Assembly (NCBI GenBank): GCA_052033715.1
Contig: JBPOJJ010000002.1
Span: forward strand, 1,676 to 65,675
Reading direction: 5' to 3'
Origin: Patescibacteria group bacterium
GTDB taxonomy: Bacteria > Patescibacteriota > Minisyncoccia > Phycocordibacterales > CSBR16-119
DNA length: 64,000 bases
The position numbers and the translations under genes were made by a program. The notes below the pieces were generated by a model, which had not been told where the DNA came from, did no database searches, and saw nothing but the letters and a program-made list of their open reading frames with translations. Below are positions 3,865 to 53,892 of the stretch, in pieces (the first letter of the stretch is position 1; every line of letters begins with the position of its first letter).

Positions 3865-5145
3865 ATGACTTCAACGAAAAGGATCCTGCTTGTTTTGGGC
3901 GATATCATCGCCTTAGGGCTTGCCTTTGCCGGCATGCTTCTTATCCGTTTCGGCTGGAATCCAGACCCGGTAATTGTCTTGGCTCACACAACCTCTTTCA
4001 TAACACTATCCATCATCTGGCTCATCATTCTATATGTATACAACCTCTATGACGCTCAATTTATAAAAGCGACGCTCCGAAGTTTCAGAAATATTTTCCT
4101 GGCCCTCATCACTTGCCTCGGTGTCGGCTTCATCCTCTTTTACCTAGTACCCTTCCCTGTCGCACCAAAAACAAATTTGGTTATCTCTGTCGGGCTATTC
4201 GCTTTTTTCTTGGCTCTCTGGAGAATGGGTTACTCAGCCATAATCGCTCACAACTTCAAAAAAGTCGTTGTCATAGTTGGCGCCACCGATGAAACAAAGC
4301 GTTTGGTTGGAGAACTCGAGAGTCAGAAGCATCTAGGTTATGTGATATTTGGAACCTTCAATTCGATAACAGAAGCTTTCGCCGCGTGTCCACAAGCCGA
4401 GATGATCATTTACGACAAAGCTCTGCAAGGCAATGATTTACAGACCGTTGTCGAGGCTGATGTCGATGTCGTGAATGTTCGCGACGCTTACCAAGAAATT
4501 TTTCACTTGATTCCTGTGGAACTAGTCGATGATGGATTTGCTGTGCGAGTAATTGAGAAGAACGACAATCCGCTTTACAGACTCACGAGCCGATTAGTTT
4601 CCATAATTTTTGCTTCAATAATTCTCATCGCTACGCTTCCAATTACGCTCGTATTCGCAATGCTCATTTATCTATACGACCGCGGACCAATATTTTTTAA
4701 TCATGCTCGAGTCGGTTATCGCGGAAAAGTTTTTCAAATCTTCAAGCTCCGTTCAATGGTTATAAATGCTGAAGGTAACGGTGCTGTCTGGGCTGAAAAT
4801 AAAGATCCTCGCATCACGCCAATCGGTCGCATCATTCGAAAAACCCACATCGATGAAATCCCACAAATGCTAAACGTCTTGCTCGGCGACATCACCCTCG
4901 TCGGACCAAGACCTGAGCGCCCAGAATTCGTGAGCAAGCTCGCAAACGAAATTCCTTATTATTACTTGCGACACAGTATCAAACCAGGATTTACTGGTTG
5001 GGCTCAGATCAAATTCCGCTATGCCCGCTCTGTCATGGATTCGAAGGAGAAATTCGAGTATGATTTGTACTATATCAAGAACCGCAATTTCATCCTTGAT
5101 CTAGGCATCATCGCCAAGACGATCCAAATCATTTTTACCCACTAA
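3865..5145 (+). CDS. undecaprenyl-phosphate sugar phosphotransferase (WbaP/'bacterial sugar transferase' family, initiating enzyme)
   Basis: 426 aa; N-terminal TM segments; C-terminal sugar-transferase motifs (FKLRSMV, DEIPQMLNVLLGDITLVGPRP). Confidence 0.85.
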   Translation: MTSTKRILLVLGDIIALGLAFAGMLLIRFGWNPDPVIVLAHTTSFITLSIIWLIILYVYNLYDAQFIKATLRSFRNIFLALITCLGVGFILFYLVPFPVAPKTNLVISVGLFAFFLALWRMGYSAIIAHNFKKVVVIVGATDETKRLVGELESQKHLGYVIFGTFNSITEAFAACPQAEMIIYDKALQGNDLQTVVEADVDVVNVRDAYQEIFHLIPVELVDDGFAVRVIEKNDNPLYRLTSRLVSIIFASIILIATLPITLVFAMLIYLYDRGPIFFNHARVGYRGKVFQIFKLRSMVINAEGNGAVWAENKDPRITPIGRIIRKTHIDEIPQMLNVLLGDITLVGPRPERPEFVSKLANEIPYYYLRHSIKPGFTGWAQIKFRYARSVMDSKEKFEYDLYYIKNRNFILDLGIIAKTIQIIFTH

Positions 5146-5147
5146 AC

Positions 5148-6596
5148 ATGGAAAAACTCAAAGCCTTCTTATTCAAAAACACTTCGACCAAACAAACCGT
5201 CGCCAAAAATTCTATTTGGCTCCTTGTCGGCGACATCCTCGGAAGGCTTTTGAAACTCGCTATCGTCGTCGTGGCCACTCGCGAACTGGGAGTCGAAGGT
5301 TGGGGAATTTTTTCATACGGCCTGGCTTTCGTCGGGCTCTTCTTTTTATTGGGTGACTTTGGCATCAACACTTTCATTACCAAAGAAATGTCCAGAGACG
5401 AAGAAGGAAAACACAAATACCTGGCCACAGCCATTGTCATTCGTCTGTCTTTCCTACTTATATTTTTCCTGGCGGCAATTTTGGCCGGGCCACATCTGGG
5501 AAAAATCGAGCTCGGCTTCAGTATGATTTTGGTCCTAGCGACTTTTTCCATTTTCGAATCGATCCGCGAATTCGCCATGTCGATCAATCGTTCAAGACAG
5601 AGGATGGAGATTGAAGGCTTCTCAAAAATACTCATCAACCTCTCCATCACAGTAATTGGAATCCTACTGCTCTCACAAAGCGCCGAACCATTTTCTGTTG
5701 CTATGGCCTACATGCTTGGAAGCATTATCGCCACAATCTACATTCTCTGGAGCATCCGTAAAGAATTCAAAGGTCTCAAATGGAAATTCTCCAAAGAAAA
5801 TTTCAAAGTCATCTACAATTTCTCTTGGCCGATTGTCATTATGGGATTTTTTGGAGTTCTCTTTAGTCTCGACACCATAATGCTCGGACAAATGAAGTCC
5901 GCGACCGAGGTCGGCCTCTACACCACCGGTCAGCGAGTCATCACCCTGTCTTCGATGATCCCAGGATTGATCGCCGTATCAATACTCCCAATATTTTCAA
6001 AATACGAAAATGATCCGATCCGTGCTGGTGCAATTTTCGAAAAAATTATGAGGGTACTTTTAGCTTTTGGTATTCCGATCGCCGTCGGCGGGATATTTTT
6101 TAGCTACGATATTATCGCGCTCATGTTCGGTCCGGAATTTTTAGCTGGAACATTAACTTTACAAATATTAATGGTCTCGATTTTGGCTTCTTTCCCGAAC
6201 ATTATCCTGACCAATTTGATATTTTCCAAAAGCCTCCAAAAAACTTTTATCTTCGTAACTATCTTTGGCGTCTTGCTTGATATCGGACTAAATTTCTGGC
6301 TAATCCCGATTTATGGTGCGGCGGGTGCGGCGGCCTCTACAGTACTCGCCGAACTTATCATTATGGGCGCAAACTGGCGCAAGATGAAAAAATTCGTGCC
6401 GTTTAGTGTTGTGTCAAAACTTGGTAGAGTAATTCTTGCGACCATCATCATGACTCTTGGCATTGTGGCACTGAACGCAATCGGTATTCATTTTATCCTT
6501 GTTATAATACTAGCGATGGGAATTTACGCACTCGCACTTCATCTCTTAAAAGAGCCGATTTTCAAAGAAATACTTTCGCTGCGCAAAGCCAAGTAG
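5148..6596 (+). CDS. Wzx-type polysaccharide flippase (MOP/polysaccharide biosynthesis protein family)
   Basis: 482 aa, ~12-14 TM helices; N-terminus typical of PST/Wzx family; 2-nt gap after transferase gene. Confidence 0.75.
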   Translation: MEKLKAFLFKNTSTKQTVAKNSIWLLVGDILGRLLKLAIVVVATRELGVEGWGIFSYGLAFVGLFFLLGDFGINTFITKEMSRDEEGKHKYLATAIVIRLSFLLIFFLAAILAGPHLGKIELGFSMILVLATFSIFESIREFAMSINRSRQRMEIEGFSKILINLSITVIGILLLSQSAEPFSVAMAYMLGSIIATIYILWSIRKEFKGLKWKFSKENFKVIYNFSWPIVIMGFFGVLFSLDTIMLGQMKSATEVGLYTTGQRVITLSSMIPGLIAVSILPIFSKYENDPIRAGAIFEKIMRVLLAFGIPIAVGGIFFSYDIIALMFGPEFLAGTLTLQILMVSILASFPNIILTNLIFSKSLQKTFIFVTIFGVLLDIGLNFWLIPIYGAAGAAASTVLAELIIMGANWRKMKKFVPFSVVSKLGRVILATIIMTLGIVALNAIGIHFILVIILAMGIYALALHLLKEPIFKEILSLRKAK

Positions 6597-48391: not shown

Positions 48392-51300
48392 TTATTTTTC
48401 TATTCTTATTTCTTCTCCGCCAAATTTTATTTCCTTTATACCTGCGACTTTTTGGAGTTCGGATTCGAAGCCAGAAATGATTTCTTTGGAAGATTCTGGA
48501 ATTGTAAGAGTGACTAGATCACTTGGCGACAAATCATTATCTTTTCGAAGACCTTGGACACTGCGGAGAAATTCTCGGAAATCGCCCTCCTTCTTTAATT
48601 CGTCAGTGATGTTTGTGTCGAGTGTAATTTCTGATCCAGAAATTATTTCTTTGACGTTTACTTCATCTTTGAGAAGTTCCAAATATTCCCCATCTAACTT
48701 TTGATTTATCGTAAGTGTTGCAAGCGGCTGGCGGACTTTGATATTAGCCTTCTGACGTGCTTCAAGTCCAGCGGTTACAAGTTCACGAGTCACTTTCATC
48801 GATTCTAAAACTTTTTCATCTATCTTTTTCACTTCGGGCCACGACTCGAGATGAACCGATTCTTTCTCGCCACCCACTTTCTGGTATAAATCTTCGGCGA
48901 AAAATGGCGTCATTGGCGCCATAAATTTCGCGAGTTCTGTAAATACGTGTTTGGTTGTCGCGAGAGCGAATTGTTTATCATCTTCGTCATCGCCCTTGAA
49001 GCGATCACGCGAACGGCGGATGTACCACGTCGATAAATCATTTACAAAATCACGAAGCGCACGAGCCGGCTCAAATATTTTGAACTCATCAAACTTCTCG
49101 GTTCCCTCTCTAACCATCTCGGCAAGTTTGGCCAAGATCCAAGCATCGAGAACGTTCGGACTTTTGTTCGGCTCGAAACCAGATTTCATCTCGCCAACAT
49201 ATGTTTCATAGAATTTATGACAATTTAAAATAAGTGTGAATATTTTGCCATGAAGTTCAGCCACCGTTTTCTCATCGAAGTTTTTCGAATCTCCCGGCTG
49301 GTTCACCGAATACATCCACAGACGCAATGTGTCGACGCCGTATTTGTCCATCATCTCCCATGGGTTCACGATGTTGCCAATTGATTTCGACATTTTCTTG
49401 CCCTGCGCGTCGAGAATGTGTCCGAGACAAATACAATTTTTATATGACGCGCCCTTGCCCATCAGTACGCCAACCGCAAGAAGCGTATAGAACCATCCAC
49501 GAGTTTGATCGACGGCTTCGGAGATGAAATCCGCCGGATAGCCCGGACCATCGACATATTCTTTGTTTTCAAACGGATAATGATGTTGTGCAAATGGCAT
49601 CGAGCCTGAGTCAAACCAGACATCCATCACGTCTTTGACTCGACGATATTCCACACCGTCTTTTTCGAGGACAACATCGTCGATGAATGGACGATGGAGA
49701 TCAAGTTCTTTTTTAGTCTCGTTGTTTACATAAACCGTATCGACTTCTCCATTATCAATACCGTGAAAAACTCGGATCGCTTCTTCATTGGACAATCCTC
49801 GCAATAATTTCAAAGCGATTTCATTTGTTCCTTGGTGAGCAAAACAAAGAATGGTCTTGCCGGAGTATTTTTCCAAGACATCATCAAGAAAATCCTGTAC
49901 TCGAGCTTCTAGATCCGCCCAACTTTCTCCGTCACCTCCACGCTTCATAACAAAACGATCTTCGGTGGACATATTCTTATAAGCATTTCGCGAAGCTTTT
50001 ATTGCCGGATCATGCTGTGATTTTTCCTCCCAATCACCGCTTTTTATCTCACCCAGACGCTCGTCGAGCACCATCTCAAATCCTCTTGATTTAGTAAACG
50101 CCTCGGCAGTTTCGCGCGCCCTCAAAATAGGCGAAGAGAAAATCACATCCGGCGTAAGATTATTCATCTTTTCAGCGCTCTGTTTGGCTTGTTCTCTGCC
50201 AAGGTCAGTCAAGTGATGAAGCTCAAGCGCGCTCGAAGACATTTCGAGAACATTGTGTTCAGCTTGGCCATGACGGACAAAAAGTATTTTTGTAAGTTTT
50301 TTCTTGGAATATTTTCGAAGTGTCTCAATCGAATCAACAATGATTTTCTCTCTCTTGTCTTCGGTCTGCCAGATTGGAAGCGGTGTACCCCAATAACGCT
50401 CACGAGAAATCGCCCAGTCTTTGATCTCGCGAAGCCACTCACCAAATCGGCCTTCTTTGATGTGAGATGGCTCCCAGTTTATTTTCTCATTCTGTTTTAC
50501 GAGTTCATCGCGAAGTTCCGACATCCGGATATACCAAGAATCCCGCGCGTAATAAATAAGCGGAGTTTTACATCTCCAGCAATGCGGATATGTGTGTTCG
50601 TAATTTTTCTTCCCAAAGAATAATCCCCTTTTGGTCAGATCGTTGATGATGTCTACCGCGACAAGTGGCTTCCCTGCCTCGTCTTTCTCCATAACAAATC
50701 GGCCAGCGAGAAATTCCACTCCCGGCAAGAATTTACCATCAAGTCCGACAGTGTGAATCTTTGGAAGTCCCTCACGTGTCGCCAACTCAAAGTCGTCCGC
50801 TCCATACATCGGCGCGATGTGTACGATTCCCGTTCCATCTTCGGTTGTGACGAAATCTCCAGCATAGACTTTGAAACTAGCTTCTAGCTTTTCGCTTTTA
50901 GCTTCTAGTGGATAAAGAGGTTCGTACTCCATGCCTATCATCTCACTACCTTTGTGTTCTGCAATAATTTCATAAGGCTCCGTGATGATCGAAAGCATCG
51001 CTTTGGCGACAACCAATATTTCCTCGCCGACTTTCGCTTCGACATACTCGACATCTTTTCCAACAGCTAATGCGACGTTGCCTGGAAGCGTCCATGGTGT
51101 TGTCGTCCAGGCGACGAAATATGCCTTGTCGAATCCTTTGATTGGAAACTTCGCAAAAATCGATAGGTCTTTGACATCTTCATACCCCTGCGCGAGTTCG
51201 TGTGACGACAAAGTTGTCCCGCAACGCGCGCACCATGGCAAGACTTTGAAGTCGGCGTACAATAAATTTTTCTTGTTCACTTCTGAAACGATATTCCAAA

Positions 51301-51781
51301 GTGATTCGATGTAATTTGTATTGAAAGTAAAATACGCATTTTTTTTGTCCACCCAATAACCGATACGATCCGTAAAATCTTCCCAATCTTTGATGTAATC
51401 GAAAACGCTTTGCTTACACTCGGCGTTGAATTTCTCGATGCCGTATTCTTCGATATCCTTCTTCGACTTTAGTCCGAGCTTCTTCTCAATCTGAAGTTCA
51501 ACTGGAAGTCCGTGCGTATCCCAGCCACCCTGGCGGGCGACGTGAAAGCCCTGCATCGTTTTGTAGCGAGGTATGACGTCCTTGAAAGCCCGAGCTTCGA
51601 GATGGTGAAGCGCTGGCTTGGCGTTAGCCGTCGGTGGGCCTTCGAAGAAGACGAATTCGCCTTTTGGGGATTCTTTCGAGAGAGATTTATCAAATATTTT
51701 GTTTTCTGCCCAGAATTTAAGAACCGCTTCTTCTTTTAGAGCGGCGTCAGACTTCTTGGGCACTCCCTGGTCCTTTTCCAT
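48392..51781 (-). CDS. ileS: isoleucyl-tRNA synthetase (type 2/eukaryote-like) carrying an internal histidine-phosphatase (PGAM-like) domain insertion
   Basis: 1129 aa; HIGH-region (PALHHLEARAF), CP1/editing region, WGTPLPIW, DVWFDSGSMPF, KMSKSIGN, anticodon-binding C-terminus; ~195-aa insert with RHG...R...E...H phosphatase motifs. Confidence 0.9.
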   Translation of the reverse strand: MEKDQGVPKKSDAALKEEAVLKFWAENKIFDKSLSKESPKGEFVFFEGPPTANAKPALHHLEARAFKDVIPRYKTMQGFHVARQGGWDTHGLPVELQIEKKLGLKSKKDIEEYGIEKFNAECKQSVFDYIKDWEDFTDRIGYWVDKKNAYFTFNTNYIESLWNIVSEVNKKNLLYADFKVLPWCARCGTTLSSHELAQGYEDVKDLSIFAKFPIKGFDKAYFVAWTTTPWTLPGNVALAVGKDVEYVEAKVGEEILVVAKAMLSIITEPYEIIAEHKGSEMIGMEYEPLYPLEAKSEKLEASFKVYAGDFVTTEDGTGIVHIAPMYGADDFELATREGLPKIHTVGLDGKFLPGVEFLAGRFVMEKDEAGKPLVAVDIINDLTKRGLFFGKKNYEHTYPHCWRCKTPLIYYARDSWYIRMSELRDELVKQNEKINWEPSHIKEGRFGEWLREIKDWAISRERYWGTPLPIWQTEDKREKIIVDSIETLRKYSKKKLTKILFVRHGQAEHNVLEMSSSALELHHLTDLGREQAKQSAEKMNNLTPDVIFSSPILRARETAEAFTKSRGFEMVLDERLGEIKSGDWEEKSQHDPAIKASRNAYKNMSTEDRFVMKRGGDGESWADLEARVQDFLDDVLEKYSGKTILCFAHQGTNEIALKLLRGLSNEEAIRVFHGIDNGEVDTVYVNNETKKELDLHRPFIDDVVLEKDGVEYRRVKDVMDVWFDSGSMPFAQHHYPFENKEYVDGPGYPADFISEAVDQTRGWFYTLLAVGVLMGKGASYKNCICLGHILDAQGKKMSKSIGNIVNPWEMMDKYGVDTLRLWMYSVNQPGDSKNFDEKTVAELHGKIFTLILNCHKFYETYVGEMKSGFEPNKSPNVLDAWILAKLAEMVREGTEKFDEFKIFEPARALRDFVNDLSTWYIRRSRDRFKGDDEDDKQFALATTKHVFTELAKFMAPMTPFFAEDLYQKVGGEKESVHLESWPEVKKIDEKVLESMKVTRELVTAGLEARQKANIKVRQPLATLTINQKLDGEYLELLKDEVNVKEIISGSEITLDTNITDELKKEGDFREFLRSVQGLRKDNDLSPSDLVTLTIPESSKEIISGFESELQKVAGIKEIKFGGEEIRIEK
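49712..50293 (-). other. inserted histidine phosphatase superfamily (branch 1, phosphoglycerate-mutase-like) domain within ileS (approx. residues 497-690)
   Basis: KILFVRHGQAEHN (RHG catalytic His), SSPILRARETAE (Arg), LDERLGEIKSGDWE (Glu), ILCFAHQGTNEIALKLL (second His); located between WGTPLPIWQTEDKREKII and ELDLHRPFIDD...DVWFDSG of the synthetase. Confidence 0.65.
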
Positions 51782-51867: not shown

Positions 51868-52128
51868 ATGAACCTCTCCAATATATGGTTTCGTCTGCTT
51901 GGCTCATGCGGCCTAGGCAGACGCGCAAAGATGCGCGAAGCAATGAATCATGTCGCGTCGAATTCTCCCACACCTCTTGCGGGGAAGGCCTTGGCCAACT
52001 ACCTAAGAACGGGGGTCAATCCCGACATGGTGAAGTACAATTTCAGTAGCCGCTGCAAGGGTGACAAGAAACTTGCGGGGATGTTCGAACCACTCTTCAA
52101 CGAGATGGTAGGAGAACTGGAGGCCTGA
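51868..52128 (+). CDS. small GC-rich hypothetical protein (86 aa) with own terminator
   Basis: ORF divergent from ileS, stop codon embedded in hairpin GGAGGCCTGAGAGGGCCTCC followed by T-tract; no recognisable domain. Confidence 0.3.
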   Translation: MNLSNIWFRLLGSCGLGRRAKMREAMNHVASNSPTPLAGKALANYLRTGVNPDMVKYNFSSRCKGDKKLAGMFEPLFNEMVGELEA

Positions 52129-52197: not shown

Positions 52198-53892
52198 TCA
52201 CATCCTGTCAGGAGATTTAATACCGAGAAGTTGCAAACCGTTTTGAATTACAATTCCGACAGATTTCGCGAGCGCTAGATTGTAACTGGTGTTTTTATTT
52301 TCCGGATCAACAAGTTTGGTATTTCCGTACCAAGAGTTAAAAGCTCGAGCAAGTTGTAGAAGATACGTCGCGACGTGATGCGGCGCCCATTCGCTAATTG
52401 CGAGCTCGACGACTTCCGGAAATCTGGCGACCAGCTTCTCGACATCGCTTGGTAAATCTTCAACAACCCTCTCGGCTTTTGGCGCAAGACCTACTTGCGA
52501 AGCCTTTTCCAACACAGAATTGATGCGCGCATTTGTGTATTGCAAATATGGTCCAGAATCGCCTTCGAACGATAACGATGTTTCAGGATCGAAATTTATA
52601 TCTTTACCAGCCATCGTGCGAAGGATCGTGAATTTCAAGGCACCAATAGCGACGGCGTCGGCATCCCGCCCCAGATCAACTTCTTCTCCTGATCTATCGG
52701 AGACTTCAGTAAGCACCGTTTCAAGAACGTCGGCCGCGGTTGGCACGCCTCCAAGACGACTAGACATTTTCTTGCCCTTGAAACTCATGCGACCATGAGT
52801 CTTGTGCAAAGTCTTTTGTTGCCAAGCTTTTTCAATTTTCCCAGCCGCGGCCAAAACGACTTCGTAATAACGCGCCTGCTCCCTGTCGGTTACAAGTATA
52901 GAAATGTCGGGACTGTATCTTTCAAATTTGAGCCACAAAAGTCCAATGTCTTTGGCTTCGTACGTCGGATAACCTTCAGCGTTTATAAAGACTCGAGTGT
53001 GAAGTCCATCAGCTTCGCCTTTGTAGATAACAGCATTTTCTGATTCTTCGAAAATTCCTCCAAGGTTTTGAAGTACTATTTTTTTACCAACGTCTCCGGC
53101 TTCAGATTCATAGACGAAATCGTCGAACGTTGATCCGAGTCTTGCGGTGATATCGAGGAAGTACTGAAGCGTGATGTCTTTGCCGGCGACGTAAGCATCG
53201 TATTCAACTCCCGGAGTCTTTTCATAAATCATTTCGGTGATTTCTTTCACCCGACGCACGATTGATGGATTTTCATCGTAGGCTTTGGTGCCTTCAACGT
53301 AGCAAGTTCCCAAGAAAGCGAGTCTGTCAGAAAGAGTTGGAAGTTGCTTAAGCTCGGAAACACCATGCTCGAGAAGCGCCCAGACAGCTTTACCAATTCC
53401 AAGCGAGACGTCTGATGGATATGACATTTTGGTCACGCGAGCGCCGGACGCGCTGGCGAGTCGTGCAACAGACTCGCCGATAGCGTTGTTCATGACGTGA
53501 CCGACATGAAATGGTTTGAAAAGATTCGGTGATGAATGTTCAACGAGGATATGTTTGCCTGCGTGAACTTCTGATTTACCAAACTGCGAAGTTTGCGCCA
53601 AAATTTTTCCAATTTCTGATTGGAAAAATTTTGGCACCAAGCGAAAGTTTATAAAACCCGCCGCCGTTGTGACAGATTCGACAAGCTCATGCTTATCCAT
53701 CTTCTCGACGATACTTTCAGCCAGAGCCACAGGATTGGTCTTGGTCACTTTGGCCAAAATCATAGCGACGTTCGTCGAATAATCGCCATGAGAAATCTCC
53801 ACCGGATGATCAAGGGTTATTTTCTCTAAGTTTATATCTAACTTTTCCAACGCCTCTCTAACGAGGCTTATGATTATTTCTTTTATTTCCAT
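52198..53892 (-). CDS. argS: arginyl-tRNA synthetase
   Basis: 564 aa; HIGH-type (PFHVGHVMN), ArgRS N-terminal domain and DALR-like anticodon domain. Confidence 0.9.
   Translation of the reverse strand: MEIKEIIISLVREALEKLDINLEKITLDHPVEISHGDYSTNVAMILAKVTKTNPVALAESIVEKMDKHELVESVTTAAGFINFRLVPKFFQSEIGKILAQTSQFGKSEVHAGKHILVEHSSPNLFKPFHVGHVMNNAIGESVARLASASGARVTKMSYPSDVSLGIGKAVWALLEHGVSELKQLPTLSDRLAFLGTCYVEGTKAYDENPSIVRRVKEITEMIYEKTPGVEYDAYVAGKDITLQYFLDITARLGSTFDDFVYESEAGDVGKKIVLQNLGGIFEESENAVIYKGEADGLHTRVFINAEGYPTYEAKDIGLLWLKFERYSPDISILVTDREQARYYEVVLAAAGKIEKAWQQKTLHKTHGRMSFKGKKMSSRLGGVPTAADVLETVLTEVSDRSGEEVDLGRDADAVAIGALKFTILRTMAGKDINFDPETSLSFEGDSGPYLQYTNARINSVLEKASQVGLAPKAERVVEDLPSDVEKLVARFPEVVELAISEWAPHHVATYLLQLARAFNSWYGNTKLVDPENKNTSYNLALAKSVGIVIQNGLQLLGIKSPDRM

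Follow-up and report, generated by a model that had tools for sequence, protein, structure and literature searches.

A histidine phosphatase domain nested in the isoleucyl-tRNA synthetase of a Patescibacteria group bacterium

Why would an isoleucyl-tRNA synthetase (IleRS) carry a phosphatase in the middle of its own chain? The question is raised by a 64,000-nucleotide stretch of DNA from a Patescibacteria group bacterium (assembly GCA_052033715.1, contig JBPOJJ010000002.1, positions 1,676 to 65,675; here called the window), in which the gene ileS (48392..51781, minus strand) encodes a complete type-2 IleRS (IleRS2) of 1129 amino acids (aa) with a nested histidine phosphatase domain. An original prediction, made from the sequence alone, had described this open reading frame (ORF) and, within it, an insertion of about 195 aa at a place where canonical type-2 enzymes have a short linker. 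The ORF exists as described, and the ileS equivalog model TIGR00392 matches it with 890.1 bits against a cut-off of 621.4, in two stretches that flank the insert. Few enzymes have been studied as thoroughly as the aminoacyl-tRNA synthetases, and each kind of accessory domain in them (editing, tRNA-binding, and signaling) has brought new biology to light. Here, a second and unrelated catalytic center lies inside IleRS, with its full active site conserved across a major radiation of ultra-small bacteria.

An intact phosphatase domain within CP3

Alignment of the window protein to Priestia megaterium IleRS2 (8c8w) delimited the insertion. Residues 13-493 of the window protein pair with residues 10-479 of the Priestia enzyme and residues 692-1046 pair with residues 485-847, leaving a clean gap for aa 494-691 (49709..50302, minus strand), so that 198 aa stand where Priestia IleRS2 has about 5 residues. 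The slightly shorter segment first proposed as the insert (49712..50293, minus strand) translates to aa 497-690, TKILFVRHGQ...YVNNETK. Placed by the published domain boundaries of the Candida and yeast enzymes, in which the CP3 subdomain spans residues 473-534 and 459-526, respectively (PMC7191050; PMC7955072), the insert lies in the middle of CP3, a subdomain whose fold differs among Candida, Thermus, and Staphylococcus IleRS (PMC7191050). Directly preceding CP3 is the segment KDWAISRERYWG (aa 454-465), whose equivalent in yeast IleRS lines the pocket that receives the 3' end of the tRNA, A76 (PMC7955072). The linkers are short at both junctions, and the C-terminal junction motif PLPHN is kept in most relatives. 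As had also been predicted, the GC content of the insert (0.41-0.47) is similar to that of the rest of the gene.

The insert matches the Pfam family His_Phos_1 (PF00300), that is, branch 1 of the histidine phosphatases, over aa 499-689 (49715..50287, minus strand), with an E value of 2.6e-37 and 128.8 bits in the context of the whole protein and 1.2e-38 and 133.2 bits when the segment is analyzed alone (cut-off, 21.7). The four catalytic motifs anticipated in the original prediction were located by coordinate, all on the minus strand: the RHG motif comprising R503, the nucleophile H504, and G505 (50267..50275); R554, the second phosphate-binding arginine (50120..50122); E578, the catalytic acid/base glutamate (50048..50050); and H649, the second catalytic histidine (49835..49837). 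N510 also belongs to the complete catalytic set. All of these residues are invariant in 120 of 120 relatives, a set defined as the best 120 full-length matches (55-100% identity; 1106-1335 aa). One detail had to be corrected: the second histidine had been named as the proton donor, a role that in this superfamily belongs to the glutamate, while the second histidine helps to stabilize the phospho-intermediate.

Structure prediction agreed with the profile matches. The AlphaFold2 (AF2) model of the isolated segment (pLDDT, 92.6) was aligned by Foldseek to PspA, GpgP, CobC, PhoE, and a riboflavin-pathway phosphatase with TM scores of 0.80-0.85 at 22-26% identity; the longer dPGM mutase structures ranked below these short phosphatases. 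A sequence search of the Protein Data Bank (PDB) gave the same picture, with PspA as the best match. The domain shares fold, length class, and full catalytic set with PspA (4ij5), PhoE/YhfR (1h2e), CobC (6nru, 6e4b), GpgP Rv2419c (4pz9), and the riboflavin-pathway HFP (9mmh), but PspA (a phosphoserine phosphatase), CobC (an alpha-ribazole phosphatase), and their kin are free-standing, whereas the window domain is nested in a synthetase. In the AF2 model of the full-length protein (pLDDT, 79.9), the insert had values of 84-94, and the structures matched were IleRS2 8c8w and 8c8u and yeast IleRS 8wnd. None of the matched IleRS2 structures contains a phosphatase, and we found no solved or described IleRS with a catalytic domain in CP3. 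By sequence and predicted structure, the domain is an intact branch-1 histidine phosphatase of the short PhoE/PspA/CobC/GpgP-like kind, and it is expected to be enzymatically active.

Assignment of a substrate from equivalog models or fold neighbors was tried and rejected, as no model threshold was reached and the substrates of the neighbors are diverse. Scores fell far short of the cut-offs for dPGM (NF038349 [dPGM_arch], 85.6 versus 225; TIGR01258, 33.3 versus 81.7), CobC (TIGR03162, 82.9-88.7 versus 162.9), SixA (TIGR00249, 23.4 versus 74.5), and PspA (NF045917, 68.9-73.5 versus 350, despite PspA being the best PDB match). PRK07238 was among the better NCBIfam matches of the insert. The cap region, which sets specificity, is highly variable and includes a 9-aa indel among relatives, and the phosphatase domains are acidic (median pI, 5.8).

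Conservation, recurrence, and an unfused counterpart

The nested architecture is an old and stable in-frame fusion, as the original prediction had supposed. All of the 120 best full-length relatives combine PF00133 with PF00300, an identical protein is present at NCBI (P0121), and more than 180 independent assemblies contain the same architecture in frame. Purifying selection acts across both junctions: in comparison with the closest relative, L085, dN/dS was 0.053 for the insert and 0.121 and 0.076 for the N- and C-terminal parts of IleRS, values that are approximate at a dS of about 1. Mean identity across the 120 relatives is 37-39% for the insert versus 75-80% for the catalytic core. Together these data effectively refute an assembly chimera or a frameshift as the source of the insert. 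No evidence for such an artifact was found; some database fragments do stem from error-prone contigs.

The taxonomic spread was assessed by a scan of Genome Taxonomy Database (GTDB) species representatives with a flank-plus-insert alignment (A3). Among the matches listed, the insert occupies the window's site in a single reading frame in 65 of the 80 GTDB species loci, a frequency that is biased because the search patterns were IleRS motifs. Carriers include Paceibacterota and Nomura-, Zambryski-, Yanofsky-, Jorgensen-, and Magasanikbacteria; among the GTDB loci listed, IleRS without the insert occurs in Kazan, Azambacteria, several other Patescibacteria, and bacteria outside the candidate phyla radiation (CPR). 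The suggestion that such an enzyme had not been described was borne out insofar as full-text literature searches returned no description of an IleRS with an embedded phosphatase and a phosphatase goes unmentioned in two large studies of IleRS evolution. The architecture is not rare, however, since hundreds of public sequences have it, with their Pfam domains precomputed. It is therefore visible in databases, where we found no interpretation or discussion of it; both component families were already known, and what is new is their combination and its recurrence. NCBI calls the fused proteins only "class I tRNA ligase family protein," while "isoleucyl-tRNA synthetase" also occurs among the names of the public sequences; JGI labels fragments of the insert either "probable phosphoglycerate mutase" or "broad specificity phosphatase PhoE." Such labels could create spurious glycolytic PGAM calls and mislead metabolic reconstructions of Patescibacteria.

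The domain is not confined to one position. An exhaustive search with the insert alone as the query revealed several arrangements in IleRS proteins. At the window position, site A, the domain occurs singly or, in some IleRS proteins, as two diverged tandem copies. Site B is a loop of the anticodon-binding domain (window aa 863-876) that follows the domain's first helix, and site C lies in the second Rossmann half (window aa 737-749). Single IleRS proteins combine A+B, C+B, or A+C+B and thus use up to three sites. Nearly all of the 463 domain instances examined, second to fourth copies included, have kept the catalytic signature, with the R-H pair intact and the glutamate position occupied by E or, rarely, D. 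Copies from one position group together (A1 with A1, A2 with A2, and one set from site B), and the other copies at B and C have site-A or free proteins as their nearest neighbors; the positional variants are therefore old and inherited, and they have more than one origin. Site-B and C+B variants sit in unrelated genomic contexts, and the contexts of site-B, site-C, and tandem variants are bacterial (UvrB/UvrC, purA, SLH, and RelA/SpoT). Nesting also extends beyond IleRS, because a fragment of a valyl-tRNA synthetase (ValRS) on a 3.9-kb ENA contig (P0250; 1161 aa; 380-411 bits with valS models and 199 with ileS) is followed after about aa 421 by at least four tandem His_Phos_1 domains. This case is one fragment, ended by the end of its contig.

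A free-standing form of the domain was found in Moranbacteria. In the window, the upstream neighbor of ileS is the arginyl-tRNA synthetase gene argS (52198..53892, minus strand), identified by the Pfam domains Arg_tRNA_synt_N, tRNA-synt_1d, and DALR_1. In all five Moranbacteria loci sampled (L063 and L081 to L084, spanning 38-100% identity), a free phosphatase gene of about 190-205 aa lies between argS and an ileS that lacks the insert; in L063 it overlaps the start of ileS by 17 nucleotides (nt). The argS-phosphatase-ileS locus is syntenic with the window, where the phosphatase lies inside ileS. Identity between the free proteins and the inserts is 34-40%, the same level as among the inserts themselves. 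No phosphatase gene was found within 4 kb of the insert-less IleRS genes of Kazan, Azambacteria, and other Patescibacteria, and no further His_Phos gene was found in the 64-kb window. Because the domain occurs in at least three IleRS loops, in one to three copies, and in ValRS, and because a separate gene stands beside ileS in Moranbacteria, selection appears to have kept phosphatase and synthetase paired. As a Rosetta-stone signal, the pattern points strongly to an unrecognized functional link between a phosphomonoesterase and Ile/Val tRNA charging.

Possible roles of the nested phosphatase

On balance, the explanation that we consider slightly more likely than not is that ileS encodes a housekeeping IleRS with a nested, competent phosphatase and that the pairing has been selected. 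The phosphatase would occupy a loop on the surface of CP3, a structurally plastic subdomain, and would hydrolyze a phosphomonoester via phospho-His504; R503, R554, and N510 would bind the phosphate, E578 would be the acid/base, and H649 would assist. Its substrate would be a diffusible small phosphorylated metabolite or a nucleotide-type phosphomonoester, one that arises at the Ile and Val synthetases or interferes with them, and the phosphatase would clean up or protect locally instead of serving as a repair site positioned precisely for RNA ends. We infer that this activity serves the synthetase. Granting the rest, the small-molecule substrate and the clean-up role are a tentative proposal, with chances somewhat short of even. 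The flexible position and copy number of the domain, its apparent function as a free protein in Moranbacteria, its acidic charge, and its small-molecule fold kin are weak indicators that slightly favor a diffusible phosphomonoester over a docked RNA end; the variable position and copy number, the acidity, and the fold kin likewise speak mildly against a precisely positioned repair site. To our knowledge, no role of a phosphomonoesterase is known in the aminoacylation cycle. Direct cleavage of Ap4A or Ile-AMP by the domain, another role that had been suggested, is chemically unlikely because histidine phosphatases hydrolyze phosphomonoesters; inactivation of an IleRS inhibitor, likewise suggested, is speculative. 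Other modules of class I enzymes (CP1 editing, INS in ARD2 of IleRS2, and the GNAT domain of ileS_w_GNAT) illustrate that IleRS both tolerates and exploits nested or appended modules; those act on aminoacyl-tRNA or bind tRNA, unlike the predicted phosphomonoesterase of the window.

Several observations weigh against this explanation. CP3 adjoins the A76-pocket segment described above, which may leave an RNA-end substrate possible. No NCBIfam equivalog threshold was reached, so specificity is not transferable from characterized relatives. The synteny in Moranbacteria is that of a single lineage and may in part be inherited gene order, and other genes (AOX and hemerythrins) sometimes intervene in these loci. 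Finally, the mycobacterial protein RnhC/Rv2228c/MSMEG_4305, an RNase HI joined to a CobC-like acid phosphatase, likewise places a branch-1 domain on a nucleic-acid enzyme for no obvious reason, albeit by end-to-end fusion to another partner rather than by nesting, and its two domains are reported to act independently in vivo and to be functionally dissociable (PMC7466739). The match of the insert to PRK07238 is a further point in common with this protein.

The mycobacterial precedent is most relevant to the possibility that the domain is an independent housekeeping phosphatase, an operon neighbor of ileS that, in streamlined genomes, became nested in tolerant loops and is co-expressed with the synthetase but not coupled to it. 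The adjacency of the free gene to ileS in Moranbacteria, the structural variability of CP3 and its tolerance of change (PMC7191050), and the faster evolution of the insert than of the IleRS core, judged by mean identity, would all fit such hitch-hiking. Loss of a stop codon, however, would yield an N-terminal fusion and not a nested domain; nesting has been stably inherited at each of at least three IleRS sites and in ValRS, with up to three to four copies; and adjacency alone is insufficient, because the genomic contexts of the site-B and C+B variants are unrelated. We regard this account as unlikely, if the strongest of the competitors. Somewhat less likely still is a repair or anti-toxin module that clears the CCA terminus in tRNA(Ile) of a 3'(2')-phosphate or (pyro)phosphate that blocks it, or that reverses phosphorylation of IleRS itself. 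The damage would come, for example, from a nuclease or from toxSAS-type pyrophosphorylation, or from Hip-type kinases, which act near KMSKS in other class I enzymes, and the blocked substrate would be restored where it is charged. Some branch-1 members (SixA, PGAM5, and Sts) are indeed protein phosphatases, and IleRS and ValRS each have two sites in which the 3' end of the tRNA is handled. Further points in favor of repair are that CP3 begins right after the A76-pocket segment (PMC7955072), that the short linkers and conserved PLPHN suggest a fixed orientation, and that tRNA CCA ends are known toxin targets (10.1101/2021.04.30.441581; PMC11559606). Set against these are the acidity of the domain, its apparent ability to work as a free protein in Moranbacteria, its use of three distant loops, one of them in the anticodon-binding domain, and its nearest folds, which are all small-molecule enzymes. 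There is also no evident reason why the need should be limited to Ile and Val tRNAs, and no toxSAS or Hip gene was seen nearby.

A more specific version of repair, in which the domain is dedicated to self-defense and removes a 3'-(pyro)phosphate from tRNA(Ile) or tRNA(Val), or a phosphate from the ATP-binding loop, placed there by toxins of hosts, competitors, or phages, is a shade more doubtful than repair in general. If true, this would be the first case of an aminoacyl-tRNA synthetase in which dephosphorylation is built in and coupled to charging. Least plausible among the functional accounts, and quite improbable in our estimate, is a noncatalytic use as a phospho-ligand sensor that tunes IleRS or as a structural stand-in for a zinc knuckle lost from CP3. 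The window CP3 does lack the four cysteines found in Priestia IleRS2, in the relative P0237, and in the Moranbacteria L063 enzyme, and a sensor would also conserve phosphate-binding residues. The full catalytic set is nevertheless invariant, nucleophile histidine and acid/base glutamate included; P0237 keeps the cysteine knuckle yet carries the insert; and multiple copies are hard to explain structurally.

The host synthetase and its genomic neighborhood

The synthetase around the insert is the organism's housekeeping type-2 IleRS. In Pfam terms, the tRNA-synt_1 (PF00133) match is split in two by His_Phos_1 and is followed by Anticodon_1 and DUF5915. The N-terminal part (aa 1-493; 50303..51781, minus strand), which pairs with residues 10-479 of 8c8w, comprises the first Rossmann half, the CP core, the CP1 editing domain, CP2, and the first half of CP3. 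The C-terminal part (aa 692-1129; 48395..49708, minus strand), which pairs with residues 485-847 and beyond and was also delimited with Pfam, comprises the rest of CP3, the second Rossmann half, the anticodon-binding domain, and the C-terminal DUF5915 region. The KMSKS motif was read directly at aa 796-800 (49382..49396, minus strand). Two CP1 editing motifs, TTTPWT (aa 226-231; 51089..51106, minus strand) and GTGIVHIAPMYGADD (aa 316-330; 50792..50836, minus strand), are invariant in relatives (alignment A1), and the window IleRS has both the T-rich and the GTGxVHxAPxxGxDD motifs of an editing domain. As its own catalytic and editing motifs are all retained, this IleRS should charge tRNA(Ile) normally. 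Its domain order is that of P. megaterium IleRS2 (8c8u/8c8w), the Thermus thermophilus enzyme (1ile), and Deinococcus radiodurans IleRS2, and it shares with the type-2 IleRS, which are eukaryote-like and mupirocin-resistant, the KMSKS motif, the CP1 editing motifs, the anticodon-binding domain, and the type-2 C terminus. The cut-offs of the models for the acquired mupirocin-resistance enzymes MupA and MupB (NF000257 and NF000258; 807 and 787 versus 1900) and for ileS_w_GNAT (NF040702; 318 versus 1999) were missed.

The class I signature at the HIGH position has the noncanonical form ALHH (aa 57-60; 51602..51613, minus strand; direct reading), and H59 and H60 are invariant in 36 aligned relatives. 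ALHH is identical to the motif of D. radiodurans IleRS2; G/AXHH is a functional HIGH variant of IleRS2 linked to mupirocin hyper-resistance and raises the Ki for mupirocin about 1000-fold in the D. radiodurans and engineered enzymes (PMC10485003). Since ALHH is present and both histidines are invariant in those relatives, the IleRS of the window's clade is probably hyper-resistant to mupirocin. Apart from the 198 aa that replace about 5 residues, the window enzyme differs from Priestia IleRS2 in the CP3 zinc knuckle, whose four cysteines (CxxC…CxxC) have all been replaced in the hairpins at aa 470-481 and 705-714; zinc binding by this CP3 has probably been lost.

One relative with a site-A phosphatase, P0237 (1335 aa; 56% identity), ends in an HD-domain extension (PF01966/PF13023; about aa 1165-1335), which would add a third hydrolase module to one synthetase. 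It is a single instance, for which a lost stop codon or read-through is possible. Apparently split IleRS genes, suggested by matches of 525-592 aa on long contigs, were considered and rejected; the example P0014 is an artifact, a set of fragmented gene calls at the end of a nanopore contig with an inverted duplicate. In L086 (contig_27761; 57.7 kb), IleRS is distributed over several gene calls, and the contig end holds an inverted partial duplicate (His_Phos plus tRNA-synt_1 on the minus strand). This split looks like a long-read assembly artifact, which explains the 500-600-aa matches on long contigs.

The Moranbacteria loci contain two further small genes. In three of the five loci (L063, 7592..8131; L082, 9712..10251; L084, 8943..9482), a gene for a Nudix hydrolase of 179 aa begins or runs across the stop codon of ileS as an overlap, giving the cluster argS, phosphatase, ileS, Nudix; the pairing of a Nudix hydrolase with a phosphatase hints at nucleotide-derived substrates. 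An ORF of about 50 aa with a hydrophobic C-terminal half (…AVGSAxLFFxxAIGxDxYxF…) is conserved between argS and the free phosphatase gene (L063, 3835..3970; L081, 4862..5017; L082, about 4800..4995; L083, 4783..4935; L084, 4842..4994) and is absent from the window.

The window and L085 share a neighborhood composed of MsrA, argS, ileS, an MBL-fold gene, RecO, a CLIPPER/DUF11 protein, and a class II synthetase. The 416-bp spacer between argS and ileS was considered as the site of a T-box or other RNA element, and it gave no Rfam match at an E value of ≤1. It holds an 86-aa ORF on the opposite strand (51868..52128, plus strand), which is probably a real small gene, as L085 has a 92-aa ORF at the same place (5636..5914). 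Because this opposite-strand ORF lies between them, argS and ileS are not co-transcribed in the window.

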